In this document: one piece after another, positions 5,469 to 54,640 of the stretch | How positions within the stretch are numbered: the first letter of the stretch is position 1 | Layout of the letters: every line of letters starts with the position of its first letter | Source of the DNA: Eledone cirrhosa | Lineage: Eukaryota | Assembly (NCBI GenBank): GCA_964016885.1 | Contig: OZ024743.1 | Location: forward strand, 31,558,001 to 31,622,000 | Direction of reading: 5' to 3' | Length of the DNA stretch: 64,000 nt | Translations under genes and position numbers: made by a program | Notes under the pieces: model-generated | The model's input: only the letters and a program-made list of their open reading frames with translations | Database searches by the model: none | What the model was told of the DNA's origin: nothing

Positions 5469-5550
5469 ACTCCAACTAATTAGTTTCTGCAATGGGATAA
5501 AGACAGTTACATAATCCAACTGTCGAGAATTCATTGCGTCATCAGGGAGT
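5469..5550 (-). ncRNA. Type I hammerhead ribozyme with branched stem II
   Basis: Minus strand: actcc-CTGATGA-c-gcaatg...(gacagtt/aactgtc hairpin)...cattgc-a-GAAAC-taatta-GTT-ggagt. Stem I actcc/ggagt; palindromic stem III. Confidence 0.8.
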
Positions 5551-6020
5551 CTATTCTCAGCTGAGCCTCCAGGCAATGCGCGGACACTAGCGGCTCATAT
5601 AAAAATAATAATTCGGTAGAAAGAACAGCTAGGCGAGGACTGGATTCTACGTACTGAAATTCTCACTGCTTCCAGTCTAATGTCCGATTCTTAAGAATCA
5701 ATCACGTGACATAGAGGCTAGTTAGAAGGAATGGGATGGTAAGATGACTGACGCCTACTAACACCCCAAAAAAATTTTGAAGTGGTTTTGGCAGGTTTGC
5801 TCGACAAATCAGTGATTTGGAGATAAATATAGATAATTTAATATATCAACTAACATAGGCGCACAGATGCACGTCCATGCCAGCAAATACACAGGTTATG
5901 TCATAGTACCTAGGTGGTTCAATGTAGGAGGGTGCAGAACAATAATATAAAAGACGTAAAATAAGAAAATATTTTTTAAAAAATCTTTAAAAATTTTTTT
6001 ACTTACTTACTTAAATTTTC

Positions 6021-6102
6021 ACTCCAACTAATTAGTTTCTGCAATGGGATAAAGACAGTTACATAATCCAACTGTCGAGAATTCATTGCGTCATCAGGCA
6101 GT
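6021..6102 (-). ncRNA. Second tandem HHR copy (one stem I mismatch)
   Basis: Same motif 552 bp away; stem I strand reads actgc instead of actcc. Confidence 0.75.
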
Positions 6103-7077
6103 CTATTCTCAGCTGAGCCTCCAGGCAATGCGCGGACACTAGCGGCTCATATAAAAATAATAATTCGGTAGAAAGAACAGCTAGGCGAGGACTGGATTCT
6201 ATGTACTGAAATTCTCACTGCTTCCAGTCTAATGTCCGATTCTAAAGAATCAATCACGTGACATAGAGGCTAGTTAGAAGGAATGGGATGGTAAGATGAC
6301 TGACGCCTACTAACACCCCAAAAAAATTTTGAAGTGGTTTTGGCAGGTTTGCTCGACAAATCAGTGATTTGGAGATAAATATAGATAATTTAATATATCA
6401 ACTAACATAGGCGCACAGATGCACGTCCATGCCAGCAAATACACAGGTTATGTCATAGTACCTAGGTGGTTCAATGTAGGAGGGTGCAGAACAATAATAT
6501 AAAAGACGTAAAATAAGAAAATATTTTTTTAAAAAATTTTTTAAGATTTTTTAAAAAATATTTTCTTATTTTACGTCTTTTATATTATTGTTCTGCACCC
6601 TCCTGCATTGAACCACCTAGGTACTATGACATAACGTGTGTATTTGCTGGCATGGACGTGCATCTGTGCGCCTATGTTAGTTGATATATTAAATTATCTA
6701 TATATATATATATATATATATATATATATATATATATACCCAAGCGTCAACGGAATTTAACATATACATTTATATATATATATATATATATATATATATA
6801 CATATATATATATATATATATATATATATATATATATGTATATATATATAAATATATATATATATATACACATATACATATATATGTATATATATATATA
6901 AATATATATATATATACACATATATATATATATGTGTGTATATATATATATATATATATATATACACATATATATATATATATGAGTATATATATATATA
7001 TATATATATATATATATATATATATATATATATATATATGTGTGTATATATATATATATATATATATATATATATAT

Positions 7078-51078: not shown

Positions 51079-51130
51079 CTAGCCCAATTTCCCGCGTCTT
51101 GCTGCGTTTCACAATTTTTTTTAGTAACAA
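51079..51130 (-). mobile_element. Possible Helitron 3' terminus of a non-autonomous element (extent unknown)
   Basis: Minus strand cgcagcaagacgcgggaaattgggCTAG|T resembles the 18832 end. Confidence 0.4.
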
Positions 51131-51737
51131 AATGATGATTGATTTTAAATCAGTGATATAATATATGGTGAAAAACTCTGCGTTTCAATATTACTCATTG
51201 TAAAATGTAATGCATAAAAAATTGGAATCATTATTTTTTGTAATATATCAAATCAAAATTACATTATTAATTGTTTCAAAATTATATTATGTTGTTTCTT
51301 ATAAATAATCTTTTTCAAAATGTCAATTCAAAACCTTTGTAAATAGGAATCAAATCTTTTCATTTAAATCGAAGGGAAAACTTTTTAGTGGGAGTTTGTG
51401 CACCCGGGGAAACCTTTGATTAAAATGAAATATACTTATCCAAGTACCCTAGGCAATGTAGTTTCATAACATATATGGTTATGGCGGTTTATCTCCAAAA
51501 CCATACGACGAGCTCGTGAACAAGAAACAAAGAAACAGACAGGAACTACAATATATATATATATATATATATATATATATAGTAATAATAATAAATTTGA
51601 AGACTAAAATCCAAAGAGGGCTTGATAACGATAAATATATATCAAATATATAAGAACCGTAGAGCAAATATTTATTAAATCTGTTATAAATATATATATA
51701 TATTTATATATATGTATATATATATATATATGTATAT

Positions 51738-54640
51738 AGTGAAAGCGTGAAGAATAACATGGTCAACAGTACAAAAAGGTTTTATTTACAGTATTAACAA
51801 TTGTTTCATTGATTAGGAATTTCTAAAGGTCGCTAATCACTCGGCGTAGTGTCAATCGACCTTAAATACAGTGTATGCCTAATCAAATCATCGGAATAAC
51901 TGAATAATTTACACACGGTGTTTGTATATATAATACGGAGAACTCAAATAACAACATCAATAATAAAGAAAGAAAAAGAAAAAAATAATAAAGATGTTAT
52001 AATGAAGATGATAAAAAATAAGTAAAACAATATATACGTGAAAAAATATGAACATAATACGATTGTTTATAATAATTGTTTCTACTTTTGGCACAAGGCC
52101 AGCAATTATTCCAGTGTATTACTGGTACTTTATTTTATCGACCCCGTAAGGATGAAAGGCAAAGTTAACCTCGGCGGGATTTGAACTCAGTATTGTTGAT
52201 AATAATGGTGGTGGTAATGGTGGTGGTGGTGGTTAAAGTTATAGTGGTGAGTAAGTATAAAGATGTGATGAGGGTATAAATACTATTAATATGAACATAC
52301 ATTATAAATATATACATATGTATTGCTTAAATCACGGAGGTTTAGGATAGGAAGAAAGAATATGATAATAAATAACAGATAAAAGATAAAATTAATAAAT
52401 TAGAAATTAGGTGAAAGGGGAAGAGATACAGGTTAGGATACAAGGCAAAAGAGGTGAAATAGCTTTAGGGAGAGAGAGTGAAAGAAAGGTTATGAGATTT
52501 ATGATGTTGATTTAGTGATTAGTTGATCTGTTGACAGTTAATAATAGTGGGTTGGAATGTAGTTATTGTAATAGACTCCGGGTGGTTCAGCTTGAATTAT
52601 GGGATTGTTGGATCGAATCATGGTTTTAAATTTCCGAATTTAGTAGCTGCTTTGTGTCTACAGAAAATTGATTGTTCTATTTTGCTGTTGAGCAGCATTT
52701 TGTCATACTTTAAAATATTGCACAGCTCCATATTGCAAAGTCCACAGTGTGACATTCCATTTCTATAGTCCTTTGCTCCCGATAATTCCGACCAGCTAAT
52801 CCTGTATTCTTGGTTTGTGTCTTTAAGCTGCCAGATTTTATTGGCCAGCGTTGTTGTGGTCTCTAGACTACGGTGCTTCTTAGAATGTCTGTGAATATAC
52901 CATCTTTTATTTTATTCCCCAGCAGTAGAACCTATGTAGTGCCATGCTAAGTTGGCCGAATTGATAGTACAGAGGTACACTATATTTGATTCCAGGCATC
53001 TATTTTGTAGTGGCCACTTATCCTGTAAGTGGCAGTTACATTTGGAGGCATTCTTGTGTGCAGGTGCTCCGTCGTGGTTTTGTATGTTGTTATGTATGGG
53101 TTGAGATTTAGGTATGTTGAAGTTGTGTTGTGACGTGTTCTGACGTGTGTGTGGTTGTGATGTTGTTATGTGTTTGTGATTGATTTGTATTTGGTGTTAT
53201 GGTGTGTGTTTGTAGGTTATTTTCATTAGAGATTCTTTTATAGTTAATTTTATGTATGTATGATTCTATGTTGGTTGCAGTAGAGTAAGATAGTTTGATA
53301 GTATTTCTATTAAAGATTTTATGGTATTGTGTAGTTTAGGGAAGTGCTTGTCAATTAGTTTAAAGAATGTAGAAGGTAGTTTTGTTTATATAGAGGAGTT
53401 GAATATTGGATTGAACCATAAGTATCTCCTATCTCTAGATTTTCTATAGTTCCTAGAGGTCCCTATATTAGTATTCGGTTCAGTTATTTCTGGTGCTCAT
53501 TGTCTATTTCTATGTTTAGTGCTATATTTGCTATTTCTATAGGTGTGGGTAGTGTAGCTGTCGTTAGGTTTGTTGTTGTTGTCTCTATCTGCTATGTATT
53601 TGATCCTCTCCTTGTGGCCTGCCTTAAGTAAAGCTATGTTATAGTAGTTCGCATATTCATTAAAAATCTCTAGATTAGAAGATAAGCGTGATATTCTGAG
53701 GGATATACTATGTGCTATGTAGTTAATTATGGAGCGAGGGGGGTTTGAGTTATAACTAATGTAGGCTAGATTTTCGTTATTTTTATGGAAGGGCTCTATT
53801 AGTCCTATGTTTAGGTTGAGTGTTACATCTAAGAAGTTAGATTTTTCAGAGTTAAGTTCGAAAGTGAGGCCGAGGCCTAGTTTATTGAAGAAGATTCTGA
53901 TGTTATTTCGTAATCTTTCCTAGTTTTGGTTATTTAAGGTTTTAGCTAAAAGGAGTGTATAGTCTCTATACATTCCTCCTCGGATGTTACAAAATTACTT
54001 ATGTAAGTTATGTGCTACATATATAAGTAACAGACATACTTAAATAAGGCACTAGCCTTTGCACAGAAAAAGGCGGACCTATACTCTGATGAAATTAGAA
54101 TAATACTAGCCGCTAGGAGAACTATCATTAGGTTCGATAATAGTTACTGGGAAAGAAAAAAACAGACAGAATAGCTTCAATATCACCATGGGATCAAGCT
54201 ATTATGTCCGTCTTTTTCTTTCCCAGTAACTATTATCGAACCTAATGATAGTTCTCCTAGCAGCTAGTATTATTCTAATTTCATCAGAGGATAGGTCCAC
54301 GTTTTTCTGTGCAAAGGCTAGTGCCTTATTTAGGGTGACCGGGGAAATGGAGGAGTAGTAGTCATTGATGTCAAACTGTATGAAGTTGGAGGTTTCCTTA
54401 TTGTCTATTTTGCTAAGTCAATCTATTGCTTCGTTAATGTTACCCCATAGCTTAATTATTAGTTTGTCTTTGATTTGTGTTATTATTCTATCTAGTATAT
54501 ACTTGCTAATTCTATCTATATCCGATTTCATGGGCGATAGTACTACATTAGAGATTTTCGTGGAAAAGATACCAGCTCATAGGATATACAGCACTGAGCT
54601 TGTTCCCGAGAAAAGCGAGTTGCAGAACTGTTGTGCTAGC
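51738..54640 (-). mobile_element. PLE family F, decayed RT + GIY-YIG (about 52615-54640), 3'UTR with HHR at 51792-51898
   Basis: FDINDYYSSI, GMYRDY, NFLDVTL, LWFNP, CNC..CPL..C, HYIGST, CGLC and CRH motifs. HHR: tatt-CCGATGA-t-ttgattagg...cctaatcaa-t-GAAAC-aatt-GTT-aata. Confidence 0.88.
52072..52190 (-). mobile_element. 5'-truncated SINE family 1 inside the PLE-F 3'UTR
   Basis: Homology to the other copies. Confidence 0.82.

Follow-up and report, generated by a model that had tools for sequence, protein, structure and literature searches.

Long, unbranched helix II regions in type I hammerhead motifs of six repeat families from Eledone cirrhosa

We analysed a 64,000-nucleotide (nt) stretch of Eledone cirrhosa DNA (contig OZ024743.1 of assembly GCA_964016885.1, positions 31,558,001 to 31,622,000 of the forward strand; hereafter the window, in whose own numbering all positions are given) and identified in it six sequence-distinct repeat families, F1 to F6, with a full type I hammerhead motif (helices I to III and an NUH triplet) and 47-116 nt between the two core boxes. 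The window is animal-type DNA of 31% GC, rich in (TA)n tracts, and contains remnants of LINE, Helitron and Penelope-like elements (PLEs). The new aspect is length, the spacers being three to eight times as long as usual; a mismatch at the first position of helix II, a palindromic helix III and the U3-A8 core variant have already been published. Helix II is elongated and unbranched in several independent families of this one genome, which we regard as a real feature; cleavage is a function predicted from the sequence.

Architecture of the six motifs

The layout was the same in all families: helix I, first core box, long closed spacer, GAAA, helix III, NUH triplet and helix I partner. An open helix I, three helices around the core, the A15.1-U16.1 pair and the NUH triplet were found in all six, helix II of F3 measuring only 4 bp. 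The core CUGANGA...GAAA, or its covarying U3-A8 form, was present in five families, the exception being F6. F1 (5469-5550, minus strand) has its core at 5545-5539, a 51-nt helix II region (5538-5488) made of a C.A mismatch, a 6-bp closure, an internal loop and an 8-bp hairpin, and a palindromic helix III at 5484-5475, with the cut predicted after 5474. In F2 (7171-7264, minus) the U3-A8 core UUGANAA (7259-7253) is followed by a 54-nt helix II region, helix III is a 6-bp near-palindromic hairpin of 19 nt, and the cut is predicted after 7176. F3 (16360-16437, minus; core 16432-16426) has a weakly folded helix II region of 47 nt, a helix III palindrome at 16375-16366 and a predicted cut after 16365. 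F4 (16897-17045, plus; core 16904-16910) carries the longest spacer, a 116-nt hairpin at 16911-17026, with helix III at 17030-17037 and the predicted cut after 17038. For F5 (26974-27090, plus; core 26979-26985) the spacer is an 88-nt hairpin with six G.U pairs, helix III lies at 27077-27084 and the cut is predicted after 27085. F6 (51792-51898, minus) has the core CCGAUGA (51894-51888, a U4C change), a U.U mismatch, an 80-nt hairpin, helix III at 51804-51797 and a predicted cut after 51796. All six motifs lie close to the 3' ends of elements, and 42-307 nt separate the predicted cut from the next (TA)n tract.

A first-pass annotation of this DNA had placed six such families at these sites, with a spacing of about 45-115 nt. 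Each was confirmed with its cognate helix I, helix II closure, helix III and NUH triplet, and the measured spacing of 47-116 nt bears out the estimate, as do the closing helices it quoted (atgacagt/actgttat, ttgattagg/cctaatcaa and gcaatg/cattgc). Its CUGANGA core holds for four of the six families, F2 (7171/18355) having UUGANAA and the motif at 51792 CCGAUGA; likewise, the short palindromes quoted for helix III stand, except in F2 with its hairpin. A first-position mismatch was said to precede the closure often, and does so in four families: position 10.1-11.1 is C.A in F1 and F4, A.A in F5 and U.U in F6, with G.U in F3 and G-C in F2.

The annotation had further described the inserts as branched, with an extra internal hairpin, and this we could not uphold. 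Minimum free energy folds gave a single hairpin loop in all six inserts, with 14-43 bp within the insert, and the sampled branching probability was 0.000-0.067 for five of them and 0.30 for F3; branched inserts were rejected on these results. The families do look unrelated, as had been stated: among 21 pairwise tests of the inserts the lowest p-value was 0.01, not significant after correction, and no shared insert sequence was found. A common origin of the F1 and F5 inserts, suggested by a shared 12-mer, was dropped on the same value. The proposal of a distinct structural subclass is correct as to the unusually long helix II region and overstated otherwise, because the inserts have neither sequence nor branching pattern in common and because mismatch and palindrome are the published norm of Hydra-clade PLEs. 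On visual inspection we rejected a non-circular permutation of the six motifs, because the partners of helices III and I are situated downstream.

Short motifs in AT-rich DNA may pair by chance, and 90 core-to-GAAA pairs at 40-120 nt do occur in the window. A relaxed descriptor nevertheless returned eight long matches in the window (score at least 17, spacer at least 40 nt), against a mean and a maximum of 0 in 10 block shuffles, and a stricter one nine matches against 0 in 30 shuffles. The 5' helix II strand of each family pairs with its own 3' strand only (diagonal 40, off-diagonal mean 1.25; 1 in 720 permutations), a result that arises partly by construction, the families having been picked for pairing. 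F3 is the weakest family: its score of 16 is within reach of shuffles, which gave up to two long matches at a score of at least 15, its insert has a z-score of -0.2 and its closing pairs a probability of 0.01 in sequence context. An independent covariance model nevertheless matched F3 (E 7e-4), and the motifs sit at element 3' ends. Largely refuted by the shuffles, chance pairing is a very improbable explanation. Window matches at 19447 and 37784 were discarded as chance or microsatellite.

Detection and comparison with known hammerheads

Minimal descriptors were expected to miss these motifs, and they do. The descriptor of Cervera limits loop 2 to at most 10 nt (PMC4209133). A Rfam scan with Hammerhead_1 had been proposed; for the whole window, no hammerhead match to the motifs was among the matches listed (150 of 179), and none was among the 31 matches for 16060-17560, which holds three families. 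The motifs share the core and type I topology of Hammerhead_1 (RF00163). A covariance model built on short hammerheads of the Hydra clade detected one of the six at E <0.01, namely F3; F1 reached E 0.33, F6 1 and F5 1.7 with a partial match, and F2 and F4 gave no match. Rfam reported only two hammerheads on 20 control loci, both antisense in one locus, and missed the short sense-strand Hydra-type motifs; the miss is therefore not specific to the insert. Among viral contigs no relatives were found.

The control loci were fetched by alignment of four of six full-length proteins, which gave 77 Hydra-clade loci on metagenome contigs, taken from the 80 best among 350 confirmed stretches. A sense-strand hammerhead was found in 54 of the 77, and the 50 distinct motifs had spacers of 10-30 nt (median 15); the 23 other loci, inspected by eye, held a short motif in seven cases and a long one in none. 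Nine long-spacer control matches (score 13-16) had been removed before this count. Six of these scored at least 15, where the shuffle maximum was 3, and none at least 17; six were antisense, and most had altered cores or a long irregular helix III. Eleven window spacers exceeded the control set (p 1e-4). The 44 short control motifs that were aligned showed strong covariation. At position 10.1-11.1, the 50 motifs have U.U in 29 cases, G-C in 13, G.U in four, A-U in three and A.C in one. U.U being the norm, mismatch and palindrome are traits of the clade, and length is the unusual part. The 3' untranslated regions (UTRs) of the window's three Hydra-clade open reading frames (ORFs), at 727-1496 nt against a control median of 140 (79-340, n=44), show a general inflation alongside the long inserts. 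Antisense hammerheads were also seen beside Hydra-clade elements of the control set, at L019:2636-2682 and 2917-2963 (both minus, the two Rfam-positive ones) and at L002:2542 (minus).

Among the closest known systems are the Hydra-clade PLE hammerheads in File S2 of Craig et al. 2021 (PMC8557442). They resemble the window motifs in their 3'-UTR site, (TA)n insertion, short helix I, self-complementary helix III of 3-4 bp, mismatch at 10.1-11.1 (mostly U.U, also noted in PMC3088659) and carrier ORFs with a CxCx5C linker and no CCHH. Loop 2 of the motifs listed there, however, measures 3-10 nt, whereas the two window motifs on Hydra-clade ORFs have 80 and 88 nt. C.A at 10.1-11.1 is present in PLE-X1_cBra of the same study. 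Long second loops also occur in the spike-moss elements PLE-X1_sMoe and PLE-X1_sTam (about 34 and 29 nt by our own count), flagged there as deviating; these are of the plant Chlamys type, about half as long as the longest window inserts, and the parts of PMC8557442 covered contain no analysis of the insert. The minimal PLE hammerheads of Cervera and de la Peña 2014 (PMC4209133) share a longer helix II, a palindromic helix III for dimer cleavage, the U3-A8 variant and opposite-strand pairs from 5' inversions. They differ in having a helix II of 7-8 bp, a loop of at most 10 nt, a single bulge after A9 and G10.1-C11.1, where four of the six window families have a mismatch and all have 14-43 bp in the insert. 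In the portions of the literature covered, no helix II region of 50-120 nt was reported for animal PLE hammerheads; PMC5785218 and PMC5850863 may hold cases, and the word hammerhead does not occur in the main text of PMC13282606.

Naiads were reported to have no canonical hammerheads, and eight of them have core halves 35-50 nt apart (PMC8557442). By eye, the Naiad consensus that precedes Naiad_Hpol in File S5 of that paper (by list order Haemonchus) closes with a first core box followed by a helix II of 5 bp, and the loop of this helix appears to contain the partner of helix III, the cut site and the partner of helix I; the arrangement appears to be a hammerhead in non-circular permutation, as in PMC10085705. 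In the consensus before Naiad_Ovul the GAAA box precedes the first core box.

Carriers and copies

F5 and F6 reside on Hydra-clade PLEs, each downstream of its ORF on the same strand, by 968 and 727 nt respectively. The F5 carrier ORF (24983-26011, plus) is 5'-truncated and comprises the thumb of the reverse transcriptase (RT), a CxC-C linker and a C-terminal endonuclease; its linker has one extra residue, CxCx6C as read from the translation. The F6 carrier ORF (52621-54552, minus) is frameshifted, with a 5' inversion at 54041-54332. No RNA data set was listed as containing 51740-54400, which carries no information on expression. Both carriers have the features that distinguish the Hydra clade (C-terminal endonuclease, CxCx5C linker, no CCHH, CxxC and CxH motifs), the clade being defined by a CxCx5C linker without CCHH (PMC8557442), and both combine (TA)n insertion with a hammerhead near the 3' end. 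As for RWK and DKT of the N-terminal RT, the window copies are 5'-truncated, and the full-length homologues P0001-P0006 have RW followed by K, R or A, and DKT. Naiad or Nematis identity was dropped for the carrier ORFs, their endonuclease being C-terminal and their linker of Hydra type. An internal comparison is offered by a further Hydra-clade element (32380-35034, minus), where the ORF at 35034-33943 goes with a hammerhead of 31-nt spacer at 32447. F5 has a second copy (3635-3754, minus) with a G5U core change and a 3-nt insertion in the hairpin. Just upstream of F5 (26960-26985), a stretch complementary to its first core box, pairing at six of seven positions, could sequester that box in a short hairpin.

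The F1 carrier (5468-6499, minus) consists of a 552-bp head-to-tail unit and 480 bp of a second unit (477 of 480 identical), with no long ORF; in its second hammerhead, at 6097, one pair of helix I is broken, and an inverted short arm lies at the 5' end of the insertion (6583-6707, plus). From the ORF-less tandem units with a type I hammerhead in each, we infer a retrozyme-like element lacking long terminal repeats (non-LTR); the circular fold of the unit has a z-score of -2.5. Animal non-LTR retrozymes (PMC7229834; bioRxiv 10.64898/2026.07.22.740005) likewise have ORF-less head-to-tail units with one type I hammerhead each, the reported units ranging from 51 to 972 bp. F1 differs in its long helix II and in having only about two units.

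F2, F3 and F4 have PLE-like (TA)n ends, and F2 and F4 also have inverted copies. A second F2 copy at 17139-17232 (minus), with one helix III pair broken, faces an inverted third at 18355-18448 (plus); two others are truncated inside the insert, at 43662-43849 (minus, with a short inverted arm) and at 46953-47106 (minus, from the 5' side). Across the three full copies the 6-bp proximal helix is unchanged and most distal pairs are broken. Contigs depart from F2 at 17174 and 17208, positions that coincide with the inner ends of this proximal helix or are close to them; read-depth drops across the insert were not taken as copy numbers. On the strand opposite F2, fragments at 7784-8350 (plus) resemble PLE RT-thumb motifs, the best profile match (iE 0.15) not being significant.

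F4, which contains 10-nt tandem repeats, is accompanied by a mirror copy (16750-16895, minus), the inversion being centred at around 16897, a short way upstream of the core. Family variants were read from contigs of three runs of one sample (2546, 2292, 2246) on 16898-17560. The whole insert was a family trait in all three, and three substitutions reached at least 5% in each: G-C to G.U, U to A at H17, and U.G to U-A. All are structure-compatible and none lies in the core; a 1-nt deletion in the insert was also seen. A diverged relative (24520-24777, plus) has lost its 5' part up to a point near the hairpin tip of the insert, and one pair is broken in each of helices III and I. A single kind of Helitron N-terminal repeat fragment (16449-16505, 19391-19490, 24429-24507) is situated directly upstream, antisense, of F3 and of this relative. 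Within families, a search for covariation among copies yielded only compatible one-sided changes and one two-sided change; in the comparison across families, cognate pairing was strong.

Inversion centres and 5' truncation points fall at the core, up to about 40 nt upstream of it or inside helix II (15946/15952, 16891/16904, 43456/43528, 43662-43849, 46953-47106, 24520, 42446), in long- and short-helix families alike. Truncation near the ribozyme is not specific to long inserts, since it also occurs in the short-helix family at 42446-42564.

At 28245 (minus), 32447 (minus), 35717 (plus), 39532 (plus), 46352 (plus), 43456 (minus), 43528 (plus), 15952 (plus) and 41902 (plus) the window has additional hammerhead-like motifs of type I, with spacers of 12-31 nt, which come from three or more other families. 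A Neptune-like PLE ORF (38070-39113, minus) with a GIY-YIG match is followed about 1.1 kb downstream by a short U3-A8 hammerhead-like motif (36942-36985, minus). The window also holds a broken Helitron with Rep and PIF1 domains (19941-24410, minus) in which a 69-bp coding unit is repeated in tandem about 10 times (23670-24350), a diverged U6 small nuclear RNA copy (12141-12245, minus; 80.5 bits), probably a pseudogene, a near-perfect 400-bp palindrome between (TA)n tracts (46524-46932) in which no hammerhead core was found, and seven copies of a ~190-bp repeat that presumably includes a SINE-like motif.

Proposed function of the motifs and its meaning

We think it fairly probable, from the sequence features, that the motifs are working or recently working PLE or retrozyme type I hammerheads, whose loop 2 has grown into a long hairpin at a site that tolerates additions. 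The RNA would cut itself after the NUH triplet, cleavage after H17 being predicted from the intact core. It would do so as a dimer through the palindromic helix III or with the element's protein, while F2 could act as a monomer. The palindromic helix III of F1, F4, F5 and F6 had no monomer fold, and its homodimers reached -6 to -10 kcal/mol (-18 for F3), in agreement with the dimer model in the literature. Helix I seldom forms in monomer folds with flanks, which makes the need for a partner or a protein likely; cleavage of an Anolis Penelope hammerhead required the element's protein (PMC11167929). PLE hammerheads lack loop-loop tertiary contacts (PMC7761336), and a loop 2 that makes no such contact is therefore free to grow by slippage or fold-back, provided that helix II closes. 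Each family would have elongated its loop 2 independently, and selection would act only to hold the insert in a folded-back shape in which helix II can form next to the core, the distal part having no specific job.

Several observations weigh against this reading. The sole F6 copy has the U4C change. When 60-nt flanks are included, the monomer ensemble contains helix I in just one of the six families. No ORF could be tied to F2, F3 or F4 in a profile search (best iE 0.15, near F2 on the opposite strand), and only one two-sided change was found within any family (F2, register ambiguous). C.A or A.A, as in F1, F4 and F5, is rare at 10.1-11.1 in the control set (A.C, 1 of 50) and may lower activity. 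Finally, the three longest inserts are 68-75% paired, which is more order than closure alone requires.

In a rival reading the long hairpin is a selected domain, one binding the RT-endonuclease or a host double-stranded RNA protein and thereby timing or gating cleavage. With the closing helix stripped, the inner regions of F1, F4, F5 and F6 fold better than shuffles (p 0.003-0.007), the F5 insert folds at -24.1 kcal/mol in sense against -8.3 in antisense, and in the F4 relative three of four changes at paired insert sites are compatible (5' partners assumed), with four at unpaired sites. The trait is common to six families, and protein-assisted PLE hammerheads are known (PMC11167929). However, the inserts of different families have no common sequence, length or shape, the inner regions of F2 and F3 fold no better than shuffles, and the distal pairs of F2 break among copies. 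Other window families manage with spacers of 12-31 nt, and no complement longer than 6 nt links insert and 60-nt flanks, save F4's own inversion; an insert-flank pseudoknot or switch was rejected on this ground. A selected domain thus seems unlikely to us, and the analysis gave no support to the suggestion in the first-pass annotation that the insert might bind RT or regulate cleavage.

Alternatively, the motifs could be inactive relics, their cores persisting through master-copy amplification and their hairpins being leftovers of fold-back during reverse transcription. Many fold-back inversions are present in the window, copies at 3749, 6097, 51894 and 17227 have damaged cores or helices, and core mutants of one PLE left in vitro insertion unaffected (PMC11167929). 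F1-F3 show no strand asymmetry. In the three longest inserts, the sense strand gives the better fold. An excess of G.U pairs in sense over antisense (15 against 6 over all six inserts, p 0.04; 12 against 1 for the three longest, p 0.002, a post hoc subset) is not expected of a decaying DNA palindrome, although this bias could also be explained by RNA editing fixed through retrotransposition. Three helices and the NUH triplet have been retained by six unrelated families, and the family-wide F4 variants are all compatible. We therefore find inactive relics improbable, and prefer working or recently working hammerheads with a tolerated insert.

The surprise is limited, since hammerheads of this class, their association with PLEs and the majority of the peculiarities were already known. 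In a bolder and doubtful extension, the retroelements of this lineage would repeatedly and independently have made of loop 2 a 50-120-nt domain at which the element's protein or a host double-stranded RNA enzyme docks and through which cleavage is gated; expanded or rearranged hammerheads would then form a large uncounted class and explain some Penelope families reported to have no ribozyme. With natural inserts of up to 116 nt, hammerhead counts made by descriptors with a 10-nt loop are incomplete, and calls of no hammerhead for some PLE families require rechecking. The long-insert motifs can help to decide if loop 2 serves as a docking site for protein or is a free one.

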